A stretch of DNA of 64,000 nucleotides from Alphaproteobacteria bacterium (GTDB lineage Bacteria; Pseudomonadota; Alphaproteobacteria; Rs-D84; SZUA-605). The stretch covers positions 64,001 to 128,000 of the forward strand of contig JAVBPW010000005.1 of assembly GCA_031549385.1 (NCBI GenBank). Direction: 5' to 3'. Within the stretch, counting starts at the first letter, position 1; each line of letters begins with the position of its first letter. The notes below the pieces were generated by a model. The model had not been told where the DNA came from. It searched no databases and saw nothing but the letters and a program-made list of their open reading frames with translations. Shown piece by piece: positions 1,884-9,630 of this stretch. The translations under genes and the position numbers were made by a program.

Positions 1884-1910
1884 AAAAAAGCACAACAATG
1901 TGTTGTGCTG
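1884..1910 (-). terminator. Intrinsic terminator closing ncRNA copy 1 (convergent with tRNA-Val)
   Basis: Minus strand AGCACAAC-acatt-GTTGTGCT followed by a T run. Confidence 0.75.
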
Positions 1911-1925
1911 ATAAAAAAAACAGGC

Positions 1926-2000
1926 TATGACCTCTTTTGATGTTTTATCAAATTGTAGGCGTCCCCAAAACTTTTATGCACGCCTCGTTGTGTTGTCATA
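1926..2000 (-). ncRNA. Unrecognised three-way-junction RNA, copy 1 (stand-alone gene)
   Basis: UAUGAC-AACACAACG-AGGCGU[17 nt]ACGCCU-ACAA-UUUGAU[AAAAC]AUCAAA-AGAG-GUCAUA. It has its own promoter (2012-2039) and terminator (1884-1910), no ORF, and covaries with copy 2. Confidence 0.7.
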
Positions 2001-2011
2001 AGAAGACTTTT

Positions 2012-2039
2012 ATTATATAACATTATTAAGCTAAGTCAA
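2012..2039 (-). promoter_or_regulatory. Sigma70-type promoter of ncRNA copy 1
   Basis: Minus strand TTGACT (2039-2034), 16-nt spacer, TATAAT (2017-2012). Confidence 0.6.
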
Positions 2040-2061
2040 TTATTTTAAAAATAAAGGTAAT

Positions 2062-2086
2062 AAAAAATCCTCCCTTTCGGGAGGAT
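2062..2086 (-). terminator. Intrinsic terminator of the ACP-like gene
   Basis: Minus strand ATCCTCCC-gaaa-GGGAGGAT followed by a T run. Confidence 0.85.
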
Positions 2087-2118
2087 CGCTGTCAGAGACA
2101 GACATCAAACGCAAGCTA

Positions 2119-2415
2119 CTACGAAAAGCATTGTGCGAAGCGCTTTACAGTCAAAGGCTTTTGGCCTTTATCGTACCAGCTGGAAGTTAATTCAGCTGGA
2201 GACATGGTGAACGTGGTATTTGTTACTCGTTCTATCCTTTGGGCGGCAGCTGCTACATCTAAGTAGTCAACTTCCAGGCCAGTGTAGATATCACCATTGC
2301 CTTTTCGGTAAACTGTTTTTGCTACGCATTCGGCAGTTGTGCCGGTTTCTCTTGCGAGAGCCATGTAACAGGCTCTTTCCATGTCCCTTATCGGGACTTT
2401 TCTTTGTTTGTTCAT
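2119..2415 (-). CDS. Acyl-carrier-protein-like protein (98 aa) with DYL instead of DSL
   Basis: Likely ATG at 2415, downstream of the promoter at 2447-2475. GLEVDYLDVAAAAQRIE aligns to ACP DLGADSLDTVELVMALE, and LTVKRFAQCF to TTVQAAIDYI. Ends in a double TAG stop. Confidence 0.6.
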   Translation of the reverse strand: MNKQRKVPIRDMERACYMALARETGTTAECVAKTVYRKGNGDIYTGLEVDYLDVAAAAQRIERVTNTTFTMSPAELTSSWYDKGQKPLTVKRFAQCFS

Positions 2416-2446
2416 ATATATTAAATTTTTAAGGTTTGAGCTCAAG

Positions 2447-2475
2447 ATATTACCATTTAATTTAAAAAATGTCAA
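2447..2475 (-). promoter_or_regulatory. Sigma70-type promoter of the ACP-like gene
   Basis: Minus strand TTGACA (2475-2470), 17-nt spacer, TAATAT (2452-2447). Confidence 0.7.
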
Positions 2476-2504
2476 ATATTAATTTAAAAAATTAAAATAT
2501 AAGG

Positions 2505-2538
2505 AAAAGAAAAGGGCAGATTTACTTAAAAATCTGCC
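2505..2538 (-). terminator. Intrinsic terminator of the tRNA-like/ncRNA transcript
   Basis: Minus strand GGCAGATTT-ttaagt-AAATCTGCC followed by CTTTTCTTTT. Confidence 0.8.
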
Positions 2539-2564
2539 TCAATCCTAACTGTTTCAGTTGGTGC

Positions 2565-2622
2565 ATGCAACCTCCACCTTTCGGCTTGTAGGCGTGCAAA
2601 AACGCCTCGTTATTTGTTGCAT
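2565..2622 (-). ncRNA. Unrecognised three-way-junction RNA, copy 2
   Basis: AUGCAAC-AAAUAACG-AGGCGU[UUUUGC]ACGCCU-ACAA-GCC[GAAA]GGU-GGAG-GUUGCAU. The GNRA loop and G-U pair fix the minus strand. It lies 4 nt downstream of the tRNA-Gly-like RNA. Confidence 0.7.
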
Positions 2623-2626
2623 TTTG

Positions 2627-2697
2627 AAAGGGTGACGGGCACTGATCCCGCGACCTTCTCCTAGCAAGGAGCTGCTCTACCTCTGAGCTACACCCTT
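2627..2697 (-). ncRNA. tRNA-like RNA derived from tRNA-Gly(GCC), non-canonical
   Basis: AAGGGUG/CACCCUU acceptor with U73, intact D-arm GCUC-AGAGGUA-GAGC, 6-nt anticodon loop UUGCUA, T-loop AUCAGUG, no encoded CCA. Confidence 0.75.
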
Positions 2698-2723
2698 TGT
2701 CCTATAGGGTTTTAATAACCCTG

Positions 2724-2796
2724 CGGGCATGACTGGATTTGAACCAGCTACCTGGTCGTTTAGAATGACTTGCTTTACCAAATCAGCTTCATGCCC
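2724..2796 (-). tRNA. Atypical tRNA with CUA (amber) anticodon; suppressor or pseudo-tRNA
   Basis: GGGCAUG/CAUGCCC acceptor, G73, D-loop with G18G19, loop UU-CUA-AA (anticodon at 2761-2763), T-arm GCUGG-UUCAAAU-CCAGU. Deviations: A8, two A-C mismatches in the anticodon stem, no encoded CCA. Confidence 0.7.
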
Positions 2797-2833
2797 CTTT
2801 GAATTTATATATAATTCGTAAGTAACTGAGTTA

Positions 2834-2862
2834 GTTATATGAAAGATTTTCGAATTTGTCAA
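2834..2862 (-). promoter_or_regulatory. Sigma70-type promoter of the tRNA-like cluster
   Basis: Minus strand TTGACA (2862-2857), 17-nt spacer, TATAAC (2839-2834). Confidence 0.75.
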
Positions 2863-3417
2863 TTAAAATTTTAGCGAATAACCATTATCGTCAGTTTGTA
2901 TTAAATTGGCTTGAGTTGTGAGTTCTAGCTTTTGACGAAGGTTGTAAATGTGAGTCTTCAAAGTGTTTGTTTGAATGTTTTTGTCGTATCCCCAAATATT
3001 TTTCAATATTTCATCAGGGGTTGCATAGTGATTTGGTTGTTTTAATAAGAATAATAGTAATTCTTGTTCTTTTTGAGTTAATTCTATTTCTTGTTTGTTG
3101 CAAAAGAATGTGTTGTCTTTGATTTTGAACTTATCACAAGTAAAGGAATCTTCTGAAACTAATAAATCTTTTATTTTTTGCTTTAATTCAGATGGAAGAA
3201 TAGGGAGCTTTATAAAATGTGGTCCTTCTTTTTCGTCTGAAACTACTAGGTATCTCTTTGAATTTTGAGGAATATCTTTTTCATTGATTGTTATAATAAA
3301 AGAATCTTTATCATTAGTTTTGCTTTTTGTTGTGGAAATTGTTTTAAACATACCTTTAAGTAAGGATGTTAATAACCCTTCTTCCAATTTATCAAAACCT
3401 ATTAAGATTAAATTCAT
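2863..3417 (-). CDS. OmpR/PhoB-type winged-helix regulator with a degenerate receiver domain
   Basis: C-terminal IELTQKEQELLLFL...ILKNIWGY...TNTLKTHIYNLRQKL...GY. Start moved to ATG 3417 because the longer ORF overlaps tRNA-Cys. Confidence 0.85.
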   Translation of the reverse strand: MNLILIGFDKLEEGLLTSLLKGMFKTISTTKSKTNDKDSFIITINEKDIPQNSKRYLVVSDEKEGPHFIKLPILPSELKQKIKDLLVSEDSFTCDKFKIKDNTFFCNKQEIELTQKEQELLLFLLKQPNHYATPDEILKNIWGYDKNIQTNTLKTHIYNLRQKLELTTQANLIQTDDNGYSLKF

Positions 3418-3441
3418 GCGATTTTCAATGTTTAGTGTTAG

Positions 3442-3515
3442 TGGAGGCCGGTACCGGAGTCGAACCGATCTAGAAGGATTTGCAGTCCTCTGCATAACCG
3501 CTCTGCTAACCGGCC
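3442..3515 (-). tRNA. tRNA-Cys(GCA)
   Basis: GGCCGGT/ACCGGCC acceptor, GAGGA-CT GCA AA-TCCTT anticodon arm, U73 and CCA. Confidence 0.96.
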
Positions 3516-3660
3516 TCATTTTTTAACTTGCTTAGTTTATTATATTTATATTTTTGTGTCAATTGTAAAAATGGGAGTTTTTTCAGCTTTTTTGAAAGTC
3601 AACCCTAAATTTCTGATTTTTTTAATTATTTTTTTGTTTTTTAGGTTTTTAAAAGTCTGA

Positions 3661-4761
<1,101 letters not shown>

Positions 4762-6756: not shown

Positions 6757-9630
6757 TTAAAATCTATATCCTAGGTCTATTCTGAATTCTTGAGATTCAT
6801 AGTTCTCTCTTACATCCATTTCAAATCCTAATCCTACTGTCGAACCGTTCTTTGTTACATAGTTTATCTTTGCTCCAAATCTTTGTGTTAAATCTCCTAA
6901 GTCATAATAATTTTCCATCATTACTATTCCTGTTTGTTGAGATACTTCAAATGTCTTTTCTAAATTATCTGACAATTCATATCCAATTTCATAGAACAAT
7001 GTTGGTAAGATTTTTGCATTGTTGCCTAGTTTAAATGCATACTTTAAATCTCCACCTAATGATAATACATTAGATACTGATGTTTCTTTTTCTATGTTTG
7101 TATAAGCATAATCATACTTTCCATACAAATCAAAGATAAAGTTTTGAACCATGAACATTCTTCCAACGATACCTTCTGCTGATAATACATAACCAGATTG
7201 ATCAGGTGTTTGAGTTAATGTATAAATGTCTGTATCAATTTTAGAATTTAAGTATCCAAAATTACCTAATGCAAACCATTTACCGTATGAGTATCCACCA
7301 TAGATATTTCCACCAACTGTTTTAGATGATGATTTATAGTCTACTGATTTTCCATCATCACCTGAATATGATAATGCAACTCCGAGTACTGCACGTCCTA
7401 CTTGTCTGTCATAACCTAATACAAATCCTTGGTAATCATTTGTGAATTTGCTTACGTTACCTTGAGCAGCATATTCTTCAGATCCATTATAGTATTGTAA
7501 CCAAAAACCATTCTTTTTGTTCTTATATGCATCGTTTAAATACGCATCATAAGTAATGTTTCTTGAGTTTTGAGCATAAGCTAATCTTAAGTCTTTTTTA
7601 AGATTGTTTGCTACAAGGTCTGTCATTTGGTTTTCGAAAATAACTCTTCCTACTCTTCTTGCACCTGCTAAACCAGATGAAGACATAGATGATGAATTGA
7701 TTTTATCTACTTCTCCTGATGGTGCTGGTGGAACATCTGGTAAATTAACAGCATCTAACCATAATTCTTTATTTCCATTTTCATATCTTAATGTATAATA
7801 TGACATATCAAGTATTACTCCGTTATTATATAAAGAAATGTAATTTCCAAATACTTGAGTATTAGAAGAGGCTAATAAATAAGATCCATCTTCCATATAC
7901 CAGTTATTTAAAGTTAAGTTAAGTTTAATATTTCCATAAGTAGAATCTCCTAATGTTAAATCACCTATATTAGAAATAATTTTTGCATGATCCATATCAA
8001 CACTTGTATAACTTAAATTAAGTTGAGTGTCTCCACCTTTATTAGAGTATTTAATACCGTTAGCTCCATTTGCTGCATTAAATTTAGTTAACATAGCTTG
8101 AGTTGCTGTCATATTAGAAAATACCCAACCTCCATCTGAATGAATAGCTCCTGTTAAAGTTCCATTTCCTTGATAATTAATACTGTTAGCTGTATTTAAA
8201 TTATAAATAGAGTGTTCACTTCCTGAAATTGTTCCAGTTGCATTATTAACAATTGCTCCTGCAAAAATAGCGCTTGCATCAAAATATATAGCTTTTTTAA
8301 ATCCTATAATATCTTTATTGTTTATAATATTTCCGTTCATAACAGGTGCAGGTTTTGTAATTTCAGTTTGCATATATATTGCATAAAGTTCATCACTTTT
8401 TATAATCCCTGAATTTAAAATACTTCCATTTATTGTAGTTTCTCCCATAATATAAATTCCATAGTTTTTAGCAGAAATTACACCTGAGTTGTTATTGATA
8501 ATGTTAAAATCATTTGCTATTACTTTAACTCTGCTAAAATAAATTCCAACTCCTTCACCTCCTCCAATACCAGTACCTGTACCAATTATTGTTCCACTGT
8601 TTTCAAAATTTCCTGATATAGCTCCGTAATTATTTGTTACAACAATGCCATTCGGTCCTGAAATTAAGGCATTTTGTGCATTTAGAATAATATAATCATT
8701 ACTAGATTTTATAAGATGATCCATTGAAATTCCAGTACTTCCTAAAGTAGTTATAGTACCGTAATTTATTATACTTCCTGCAACATTATAGATGGAAACA
8801 CCATGTCCTCTTCCTGTGTTAGAAATTATAGCTTTTGTATTATCAGATAAACCATTTGCGCTTCCATTAACTATATTAACATTAGAAAGAATTGAAAAGG
8901 AAGCAATATCAATTCCAGATGTGTAATCTGCCTCAATTTTAGCATAATTATATATATTTGTATTAGCTTTAGTTAATGCAATACCAGTACTTCCATAAAT
9001 TAAAATATTAGAATTATCAATAGAATTATCAGCTGTTCCATTAATTATATCTCCTTCAAAAAAAGTGTCCGCATAAGATCCGCTTCCTCCAATTGCAATA
9101 TGAGATATGTTTGAAACTGTATTATTACCTCTTATAATTCCATAATTTTTAATATCACCATAATAAGTACCACCAATTAAAATTGCTGCGTGAGAGAGGT
9201 TTGTCATTGCTCCTGTTATGGTTCCATAATTAATAATATTGCCATTTAAAACACTCCCTGTTCCAATATTTATTGAATATGTTCCACTAGCTAAAATACC
9301 GTTTAAATTATTTACAATATTAATATAATTAGTTCCTGAAAAATTTATGCCATAACCAAAAAAAGACGAATTTTTAATTTCATTGTTTATTTCTAATTTA
9401 GCATAGGAACTTGATAAACCAACTCCGTTTAAATTTATAAGTCCACTGTTAATACTAAGAATGTAATCATTAGCACTTGTGCAATTATATCCGTCGGCAC
9501 ATGTAAAATACCCACCTGTTGTCATTCCTGTATTATTTGTACCTGTCCAAGTTAGTTGAGCTTGGGAGTTTGTTGTTAAAAGCAATGATGAAATTGCTGT
9601 TAAATTGTATATTATCTTCTTGAATTTCAT
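6757..9630 (-). CDS. Autotransporter (type Va) with a beta-helical Asn/Gly/Ile-rich passenger
   Basis: Signal peptide, repeated I-x-N-x-G-x-I motifs, Pro-rich linker, and a C-terminal beta-barrel ending LGYRF. Confidence 0.88.
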   Translation of the reverse strand: MKFKKIIYNLTAISSLLLTTNSQAQLTWTGTNNTGMTTGGYFTCADGYNCTSANDYILSINSGLINLNGVGLSSSYAKLEINNEIKNSSFFGYGINFSGTNYINIVNNLNGILASGTYSINIGTGSVLNGNIINYGTITGAMTNLSHAAILIGGTYYGDIKNYGIIRGNNTVSNISHIAIGGSGSYADTFFEGDIINGTADNSIDNSNILIYGSTGIALTKANTNIYNYAKIEADYTSGIDIASFSILSNVNIVNGSANGLSDNTKAIISNTGRGHGVSIYNVAGSIINYGTITTLGSTGISMDHLIKSSNDYIILNAQNALISGPNGIVVTNNYGAISGNFENSGTIIGTGTGIGGGEGVGIYFSRVKVIANDFNIINNNSGVISAKNYGIYIMGETTINGSILNSGIIKSDELYAIYMQTEITKPAPVMNGNIINNKDIIGFKKAIYFDASAIFAGAIVNNATGTISGSEHSIYNLNTANSINYQGNGTLTGAIHSDGGWVFSNMTATQAMLTKFNAANGANGIKYSNKGGDTQLNLSYTSVDMDHAKIISNIGDLTLGDSTYGNIKLNLTLNNWYMEDGSYLLASSNTQVFGNYISLYNNGVILDMSYYTLRYENGNKELWLDAVNLPDVPPAPSGEVDKINSSSMSSSGLAGARRVGRVIFENQMTDLVANNLKKDLRLAYAQNSRNITYDAYLNDAYKNKKNGFWLQYYNGSEEYAAQGNVSKFTNDYQGFVLGYDRQVGRAVLGVALSYSGDDGKSVDYKSSSKTVGGNIYGGYSYGKWFALGNFGYLNSKIDTDIYTLTQTPDQSGYVLSAEGIVGRMFMVQNFIFDLYGKYDYAYTNIEKETSVSNVLSLGGDLKYAFKLGNNAKILPTLFYEIGYELSDNLEKTFEVSQQTGIVMMENYYDLGDLTQRFGAKINYVTKNGSTVGLGFEMDVRENYESQEFRIDLGYRF

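Follow-up and report, generated by a model that had tools for sequence, protein, structure and literature searches.

Theta ribozymes are minimal ribozymes of the hepatitis delta virus (HDV) type that lie behind phage transfer RNA (tRNA) genes and, according to the published account (PMC10879173), are nearly confined to gut Caudoviricetes, with only 12 bacterial matches and none of these beside a tRNA. We describe a small RNA, which we call the junction RNA, that shares this niche and differs in fold. It occurs twice between positions 1889 and 2862 of the window, by which we mean the whole 64,000-nt stretch of DNA analysed (positions 64,001 to 128,000 of contig JAVBPW010000005.1, assembly GCA_031549385.1, an alphaproteobacterium of the GTDB lineage Rs-D84; SZUA-605). 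Both are small structured RNAs a few nt from the 3' end of mostly CCA-less phage tRNAs, both have some suppressor tRNAs among their partners, and both occur in tRNA arrays of uncultivated phages. The theta ribozyme is a nested double pseudoknot whose 5' strand pairs internally, whereas the junction RNA pairs its 5' end with its 3' end in a three-way or four-way junction, and unlike the ribozyme it also stands alone in many bacterial and archaeal genomes.

Other described RNAs share some of its traits. Terminator-linked motifs are likewise multistem junctions with many invariant junction bases, spread over several phyla, followed by an intrinsic terminator and lying outside 5' untranslated regions; GOLLD and ROOL are likewise found near tRNAs and in phages, although the junction RNA is far smaller. 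None of the Rfam models for these RNAs matches the junction RNA, which in this comparison stands without a recurrent neighbouring protein gene. Extra stable RNAs in tRNA operons and tRNA-shaped processing handles are exemplified by the species 1 and 2 RNAs of phage T4 and by handles of the mascRNA type, where a non-tRNA RNA is co-transcribed with tRNA-shaped units and presumably freed by tRNA-processing enzymes. The likeness is one of layout; among 50,697 deposited phage records the junction RNA family had no match at E 1e-3, and the 13 matches at E 10 were short, unlike the family, and placed in protein genes or unannotated DNA. The exoribonuclease-resistant RNAs of flaviviruses combine a three-way junction with a pseudoknot between the P3 loop and the 3' tail. 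The junction RNA resembles them in topology, with its 5' end by the closing helix P1 and an apical loop that would pair just 3' of that helix, but sequence relation is absent and the hosts are others, so that the likeness is an analogy only.

The locus is best explained as a cluster of three separately transcribed RNA genes, and not as a system of tRNAs and an acyl carrier protein (ACP). All three units are on the minus strand. Unit 1 runs from a promoter through a leader, two tRNA-shaped genes (the first with anticodon CUA) parted by a small hairpin, and a junction RNA (copy U1) to a terminator; unit 2 has a 98-codon open reading frame (ORF) between promoter and terminator; and unit 3 has a second junction RNA (copy U3) by itself between such sites.

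The two copies score about 63 bits each (matches 1926-2000 and 2565-2622), which upholds the proposal of an earlier note, made from the sequence alone, that a structured RNA is duplicated here. Both have the three-way form. In U1, P1 is AUGCAAC/GUUGCAU (2622-2616 with 2571-2565), P3 is GGCGU-UUUUGC-ACGCC and P4 is GCC-GAAA-GGU; its 3' tail GCA (2564-2562) is complementary to UGC in the P3 loop. In U3, P1 is UAUGAC/GUCAUA (2000-1995 with 1931-1926) and P4 is UUUGAU/AUCAAA, while P3 consists of GGCGU...ACGCC with an A/U-rich extension ending in GGGG, a loop complementary to CCU in the 3' tail, GCCUG, which precedes a U run. P1 and P4 thus differ in sequence between the copies yet still pair.

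Across the family the RNA is about 60-95 nt long. P1 closes it; P2, which some members lack, has a GUA/GAA motif at its base; P3 is near-invariant in sequence and P4 variable. P3 sits inside a core of the form AACGAGGCG...CGCCUACAA, and a GAGA-type strand leads back to P1. The full plan reads P1, GUA, P2, GAAY, AACGA, P3 (GGCGU...ACGCC), UACAA, P4, RGAG(A/G), P1'; the GUA-P2-GAAY block is missing in the three-way form.

Among 23 three-way members, 95.6% of cells pair, compared with 72.0% in column shuffles, and cells changed on both sides number 88 versus 24.2. The covariation score is 0.590 versus 0.166 (reached by 0/500 shuffles), with slid partners giving at most 0.100. Compensatory changes occur in all seven pairs of P1 and all five of P4. 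P3 is invariant because the search pattern fixed it, and since members were chosen by P1 pairing, only P4 and P2 count as independent evidence. In 71 four-way members P4 averages 3.81 bp versus 1.86 shuffled; P2, which was not used for selection either, averages 4.28 bp versus 1.56 in 64 of the 71. (The three-way model misregisters four-way members, and that alignment was kept out of the counts.) The putative pseudoknot was measured as the longest helix that the P3 loop can form with the bases directly past the 3' side of P1; in 89 members this helix averages 3.62 bp versus 3.09 +/- 0.087 with tails permuted (0/500), a difference that relatedness may inflate. The result holds for the 38 viral members alone (0/500). 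For the 51 cellular members alone it is not significant (96/500), because most of these share GGG and CCC. P3 itself shows one natural variant: a second copy at L204 has its fifth pair changed from U-A to C-G (GGCGC/GCGCC instead of GGCGU/ACGCC). A pattern with this change finds 22 viral matches, and one with the fourth pair changed from G-C to A-U finds none. At L204 (3228-3467, minus strand) two junction RNAs stand in tandem about 100 nt apart with T-arm-like sequence between them. Taken together, the alignments support a structured RNA under selection for pairing. The earlier note had argued for selection on structure, and both the two window copies and the family bear it out.

We gathered the family by an exact-pattern search for the shared core, AACGAGGCGU-loop-ACGCCUACAA, which finds at least 119 loci in the genome_contigs collection and at least 119 in viral_contigs. 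With 20 fixed bases and 31 gap lengths, our own arithmetic gives about 30-35 chance matches in the 596-Gb genome collection. A P1 helix of at least 5 bp is present in 72 of the 120 genome matches listed (119 loci, L142 having two); seven of the 72 were discarded as chance occurrences in GC-rich coding DNA, leaving 65. Such a helix is also present in 88 of the 119 viral matches listed, and these 88 are the delimited viral copies below. Record titles for L029-L108, among the matches listed, name many Saccharibacteria, Paceibacterota and other bacteria of the candidate phyla radiation (CPR), as well as Woesearchaeota, Nanoarchaeota, 'Candidatus Enterousia', other Alphaproteobacteria and a few Gammaproteobacteria. 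No Rfam 15 family covers the window copies or 28 further loci at gathering or E-value thresholds, in keeping with the earlier note, which had recognised no named system. We found no published description, although the supplements of the theta-ribozyme and 224-motif papers could hold related motifs.

In phages the junction RNA is tied to tRNA-like genes. Among the matches listed, a T-loop-like motif lies within 40 nt upstream of P1 in 51 of the 88 delimited viral copies, and at exactly 13 or 15 nt in 41 of them. At that distance P1 starts 1-3 nt past the discriminator, which leaves no space for CCA; these 41 copies thus occupy a position like that of theta ribozymes at the 3' end of a CCA-less tRNA. 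ARAGORN in intron mode finds tRNA-shaped genes of 111-174 nt ending 1-3 nt ahead of P1 in viral loci, with inserts of 15-102 nt in the anticodon region and inconsistent 'anticodons'. Phage families GP88/phrog_1617 are present on three contigs from 'bacterial' metagenome-assembled genomes that have the fused form (L085, L059, L042), and DUF932 is present on two of them (L085, L042). At L170 and L159 the junction RNA stands between the tRNA genes of an array, at L159 only 1 nt behind a normal-sized tRNA with anticodon UUA. A suppressor tRNA of any kind is present in only 3 of the 88 delimited viral loci among the matches listed. The phage connection suspected earlier is therefore real for the junction RNA, which is common in viral contigs directly behind tRNA-like genes.

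By eye, two hairpins recur in many viral inserts, with conserved loops AUACUAGUUA and YUGAUCA, the latter looking like a GAU anticodon loop. tRNA-shaped genes in which such a branched insert takes the place of the anticodon arm lie directly upstream of the junction RNA at L085, L059, L158, L163, L170, L238, L240 and other viral loci, and gene and junction RNA together make a conserved composite of about 190-220 nt that no Rfam family except tRNA matches. Viral tails tend to be G-rich (GGUUCACA, UGGAG) and cellular ones C-rich (N-CC or CCCCC, for example at L073, L136, L126, L111 and window 1925-1921). For some viral copies a second partner of the tail is conceivable, namely the 3' acceptor strand of the tRNA-like gene ahead of the junction RNA.

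In CPR bacteria, DPANN archaea and relatives of the present genome, the junction RNA lies alone between promoter and terminator. CC within 2 nt past P1' is found in 34 of the 60 cellular copies listed versus 1 of the 43 viral ones. No protein gene recurs beside the family; the only synteny is clade-specific, with ychF/dnaG in 12-13 loci and secA in 7. A model search of the order that includes this genome found the RNA in 14 of 151 genomes, the present one with two copies among them, and in one genus it is present in 12 of 108 genomes (Infernal, stricter filters). Three related genomes have it after ychF with a TTGACA promoter of its own, and four of four inspected genomes of the genus that lack it run from the ychF stop straight into the terminator; this patchy presence indicates an accessory RNA and not a housekeeping one. 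When the whole locus was compared with 40 related genomes by BLAST, only the unit 3 RNA matched, in 3 genomes. The search of relatives with covariance models that the earlier note had proposed thus recovered the junction RNA, but alone: the parts of the locus do not co-occur in these relatives. The picture of a self-contained system with co-travelling parts is not supported, as the ORF has no relatives in any search and the tRNA-shaped genes no close ones in the 40 related genomes or the viral scan. Among the three-way copies outside the alphaproteobacteria (L064/L101/L196, L071, L221, L236), some have, in place of a terminator, GGACAA and then an ATG within about 40-60 nt; a small part of the family may thus belong to the 5' leaders of genes.

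The features of the locus are collected in Table 1. The general anatomy set out in the earlier note was borne out: three minus-strand units with promoter-like and terminator-like sites, two tRNA-shaped genes, an ORF and a duplicated RNA. Between 1700 and 3000 we count six terminator-like sites versus 0.9 +/- 1.1 in shuffles, the three already noted (2538-2515, 2087-2066, 1909-1889) among them, and eight promoter-like sites versus 3.8 +/- 1.8, including 2475-2447 and 2039-2012. The consensus scan omits the unit 1 promoter since it requires T as the last base of the second hexamer; that site begins 1 base past the stop codon of an upstream gene for an OmpR-type winged-helix protein. GC content is 0.46-0.485 in the locus versus about 0.25-0.30 in its surroundings, in a 97%-complete genome of 931 kb in 8 contigs with 30% GC. 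The radC neighbourhood of the locus is not conserved in relatives, and no empty site is demonstrable there.

Table 1. Coordinates of the features of the locus in the window, with the evidence for each
Feature	Position	Strand	Evidence
Unit 1 promoter-like site	2834..2862	-	TTGACA 2862-2857, 17-nt spacer, TATAAC 2839-2834; read from sequence
tRNA-shaped gene, anticodon CUA	2723..2796	-	ARAGORN; Rfam tRNA model 54.7 bits
Spacer hairpin AGGGUU-AUUAA-AACCCU between tRNA-shaped genes	2706..2722	-	Fold -6.8 kcal/mol, z -1.47
Second tRNA-shaped gene	2626..2697	-	ARAGORN (2-base 'anticodon'); Rfam tRNA model 44.5 bits
Junction RNA copy U1	2555..2622	-	Fold; model R1 62.5 bits (match 2565-2622); pair counts; loop-tail test
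Unit 1 intrinsic-terminator-like hairpin, then T-rich run	2515..2538	-	Consensus scan
Unit 2 promoter-like site TTGACA-17-TAATAT, TG ahead of second hexamer	2447..2475	-	Scan, 10/12 matches
Unit 2 transcript holding 98-codon ORF 2119-2415	2079..2422	-	RNA-library contig of 344 nt, 0 differences, exact cover
Unit 2 intrinsic-terminator-like hairpin	2066..2087	-	Consensus scan
Unit 3 promoter-like site TTGACT-16-TATAAT	2012..2039	-	Scan, 11/12 matches
Junction RNA copy U3	1916..2000	-	Fold z -3.39; model R1 63 bits (match 1926-2000); loop-tail test
Unit 3 intrinsic-terminator-like hairpin	1889..1909	-	Consensus scan

An absence of transcripts would have told against the locus as first proposed. 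Contigs from an RNA library cover 2079-2422 (unit 2) and 2627-2785 (unit 1); such contigs indicate the presence of RNA, neither its ends nor its level. The unit 2 contig comes from a metatranscriptome run of the same study as the likely source. The unit 1 contig, of 159 nt, ends at the discriminator base of the second tRNA-shaped gene, which may be a faint hint of a processing site there. One RNA run (X3) has nothing that matches the stretch, and no RNA contig covers the junction RNA copies (1926-2000, 2565-2622), which is not evidence of their absence.

Both tRNA-shaped genes are recognised by ARAGORN and by an Rfam cmscan; they score well above the RF00005 gathering cut-off of 29 bits and fold as cloverleaves. 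With canonical bacterial tRNAs they share this fold and score, and they differ in encoded CCA, in the anticodon arm and in A8 or the T loop. Neither has a regular 5-bp anticodon stem with a 7-base loop. In the CUA gene position 8 is A, and the anticodon stem is mismatched (A.C) at both ends, in pairs 27-43 and 31-39; the anticodon loop is of 7 nt, the D and T loops are canonical, and the discriminator G (2724) is followed by CA, not CCA. In the second gene the anticodon loop UUGCUA has 6 nt (one model position is deleted), the T loop AUCAGUG is aberrant, and the discriminator U (2627) is followed by CAAA, again without CCA; its anticodon arm resembles that of tRNA-Gly(GCC) of the same genome. 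The spacer hairpin between the genes does not fold significantly by itself. ARAGORN finds 37 tRNA genes in the genome, of which 35 are ordinary and cover all 20 amino acids; CCA is encoded by 35/35 of these and by neither of the tRNA-shaped genes (GCA and UCA ends). Identity to any other tRNA of the genome is at best 0.70-0.71, so that recent duplication of a host tRNA was rejected, and the locus BLAST showed no close relative of either gene in the 40 related genomes. In viral contigs a pattern for the CUA anticodon arm gave 8 matches, all without tRNA genes and attributable to chance.

A change of genetic code was rejected as well. TAG closes 126 of 750 long frames, and long frames joined in phase across a stop are not commoner at TAG (9/126) than at TAA (32/552); TAG is thus an ordinary stop, the CUA anticodon is no sign of a changed code, and the phage-derived recoding considered earlier is unlikely. 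The apparent amber-suppressor tRNA of this genome should accordingly not be read as evidence for one. With no encoded CCA, defective anticodon arms, low identity to the host tRNAs and TAG a normal stop, the two genes are, to judge from their sequences, not ordinary decoders.

Unit 1 has the layout of the phage form, with CCA-less tRNA-shaped genes, abnormal anticodon arms and the junction RNA a few bases on; unit 3 has that of the cellular form. We give about an even chance to the view that unit 1 is a transcript of the phage tRNA-array type whose tRNA-shaped parts are processing handles that release the junction RNA as payload. RNase P would cut the 5' ends of both tRNA-shaped parts, and cleavage past the discriminator would release the junction RNA so that it begins near P1; promoter spacing suggests that unit 3 and the stand-alone copies would get the same 5' end directly from the promoter. 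The freed RNA would then act in trans. That the junction is nearly the same in phages, bacteria and archaea points either to a self-contained activity or to a universal partner, for example a tRNA end, the translation apparatus or a small molecule.

Several points weigh against this processing scheme. The ends of RNA-library contigs are not RNA ends, and no RNase Z gene exceeds its family cut-off in the genome (best match 15.2 versus 292.95 bits), leaving the enzyme for the discriminator cut without a name. The discriminator of the second tRNA-shaped gene and P1 are 4 nt apart in the window versus 1-3 nt in phages, and the window genes are normal-sized while most phage partners carry the inserts described above, so that homology of the handles is putative. 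The tRNA(CUA) with its canonical D and T loops scores like tRNA-Cys and tRNA-Ser of the genome, a CCA-adding-type gene (PolyA_pol family) is present, through which CCA could in principle be supplied to the transcript, and weak amber suppression may yet be within its reach. P1 pairing was a membership criterion, which makes the P1 covariation partly circular, and gathering the family with one exact core sequence does not capture its true range or the variability of P3. Any biochemical role given to the junction RNA is a guess.

A cis-acting role would account for the phage context as well as the release of a payload does. Here the junction RNA would be a 3'-end maturation element of CCA-less tRNAs, which would either cleave itself at its 5' edge as a ribozyme or direct a nuclease there. 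The two tRNA-shaped genes would be functional tRNAs derived from phage, and the tRNA(CUA) a low-level amber suppressor. We think this unlikely. In phages the RNA takes the place of theta ribozymes, directly behind CCA-less tRNAs (PMC10879173); another point in favour is the copy 1 nt behind the tRNA with anticodon UUA. A conserved junction with a pseudoknot would be like small ribozymes, this genome has a CCA-adding-type gene and no RNase Z above cut-off, and the RNA contig ending at the discriminator agrees weakly with it. Yet unit 3 and most cellular copies have a promoter of their own and no tRNA ahead of them that could be processed, and 34 of the 60 cellular copies listed have a CC-containing tail that is followed by the terminator. 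For the drum motif and similar ones a terminator straight after the motif has been argued to be at odds with self-cleavage (PMC5737381), and the terminators behind the stand-alone copies invite the same argument. The fold differs from the HDV type: the 5' and 3' ends pair with each other, the covarying helices form an end-closed junction in place of a nested double pseudoknot with a catalytic C in J4/2, and Rfam has no ribozyme family that matches; cmscan found no HDV-type family at E up to 10 in the window, 5 in five genome loci and 0.1 in five viral loci. The scarcity of suppressor tRNAs in the viral loci listed, the normal use of TAG here, and the 6-nt anticodon loop and broken T loop of the second gene also speak against it.

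Unit 2 is an independent, well expressed orphan transcript, for which the evidence on coding is contradictory: it may act as protein, RNA or both. The ORF has no relatives among 1.84 billion representative proteins (HMMER), in a word-indexed search of 5.8 billion proteins, in viral contigs or metagenome contigs, or in 201 genomes of the order, where the sole other match (E 0.005) has an internal stop. Its GC by codon position is flat (0.465/0.465/0.434, versus 0.425/0.327/0.169 for the long frames of the genome), its codon log-likelihood is -0.045 per codon versus 0.32 +/- 0.13, and no Shine-Dalgarno-like motif precedes its ATG. The ORF region folds better than its shuffles (z -5.16, 0/200 as good), as does the whole of unit 2 (z -5.07). 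On the other side, an ATG frame of at least 98 codons arises in only 7 of 5000 dinucleotide shuffles of the transcript, and the language-model recognition value of 2587 is within the range of real proteins. An AlphaFold prediction from the single sequence was uninformative (mean predicted local distance difference test score 42.2).

As an RNA, unit 2 matches nothing in Rfam 15 above 19 bits, far under the cut-offs concerned. A likeness to RNase P RNA was rejected, the local alignment scoring 34 against 35.8 +/- 6.3 for shuffles. A housekeeping identity for unit 2 or the junction RNA was rejected too, as RNase P RNA (205 bits), alpha transfer-messenger RNA (167 bits) and an RNA like that of the signal recognition particle (33.9 bits, below cut-off) are found elsewhere; 6S RNA was not found anywhere in the genome. 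The RNase P RNA is short, at 288 nt (C7:375038-375325), and the sole signal recognition particle candidate (C2:47903-47991) is under the Rfam cut-off of 40 bits.

That the locus is decaying foreign DNA, a phage tRNA array and one phage gene in which the tRNA-shaped parts are pseudogenes, U1 a relic, and only unit 3 or nothing at all functional, we consider improbable. Its GC content is foreign to the surroundings, most sharply at third codon positions of the ORF (0.434 versus 0.169 +/- 0.036 for the genome); no other genome searched has the tRNA-shaped genes or the ORF; and A8, the A.C mismatches, the 6-nt loop, the aberrant T loop and the lack of CCA look like damage. Against decay, every helix is intact in both tRNA-shaped genes and both junction RNA copies, all three units retain a strong terminator and a promoter close to consensus, units 1 and 2 are in the RNA library, the ORF is still open at a length that shuffles so seldom reach, and 1 kb of junk would not be expected to persist in a 931-kb genome.

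We think it very unlikely that a non-canonical ACP acts together with the tRNA-like RNAs, perhaps to transfer aminoacyl groups outside the ribosome, or that these RNAs are decoys of anticodon nucleases, as the earlier note had it: the ORF would rarely be open by chance, resembles a protein in the eyes of the language model and has one ESM Atlas cluster at 0.86 with PP-binding in 18% of members (the only trace of an ACP, and at a score under 0.9 a lead only), but it has no Pfam family at E <= 1, PP-binding (PF00550) included, no PDB chain at E <= 10 and none of the relatives sought above, and it is never beside the junction RNA in loci L002-L283 (nhmmer). The motif GLEVDYLDV of the ORF may resemble the ACP motif around the serine. 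The ACP motif D-S-L has the serine that carries phosphopantetheine; at the sole similar place the ORF reads V-D-Y-L-D, with tyrosine in the serine's position.

More speculatively, and with more doubt than we attach to the release of a payload from unit 1, the junction RNA could be a new biochemically active class of RNA in phages, CPR bacteria, DPANN archaea and some reduced alphaproteobacteria. It would either make 3' ends for CCA-less tRNA-like RNAs, cleaving itself or directing a nuclease, or serve as a compact fold of junction and pseudoknot whose universal ligand might be a tRNA end, the ribosome or a metabolite. The tRNA arrays of phages would be its vehicle, and cells with small genomes would have acquired it as a gene standing by itself. 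Unit 2 would then be a second new RNA, abundant, about 345-360 nt long, strongly folded and also coding.

If our account is right, uncultivated phages commonly carry a short RNA that is easy to recognise, with a 20-base core that hardly varies; it occurs in three very different small-genome groups as well, yet has no Rfam 15 entry. Its fixed spot 1-3 nt behind abnormal CCA-less tRNA-shaped genes ties it to phage tRNA biology. At about 60-80 nt it would be a cheap object for assays of self-cleavage, end protection and ligand binding, and it would serve as a marker of phage-type tRNA arrays within bacterial chromosomes.

Among the genes nearby, the regulator upstream of unit 1 (2863-3519, minus strand) matches Trans_reg_C (E 1.1e-18), with a winged-helix DNA-binding domain only and no receiver domain detected. 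Its longest ORF call overruns a tRNA-Cys gene (3442-3515, minus strand), and the real start is probably near 3420. Adjoining the tRNA-Cys gene is a 362-aa ORF on the plus strand (3673-4761), which its DPPY and other motifs make a candidate N6-adenine DNA methyltransferase of the CcrM type. Farther on, a 957-aa ORF on the minus strand (6757-9630) has many Gly/Asn/Ile-rich repeats and a C-terminus that by eye resembles an autotransporter barrel.

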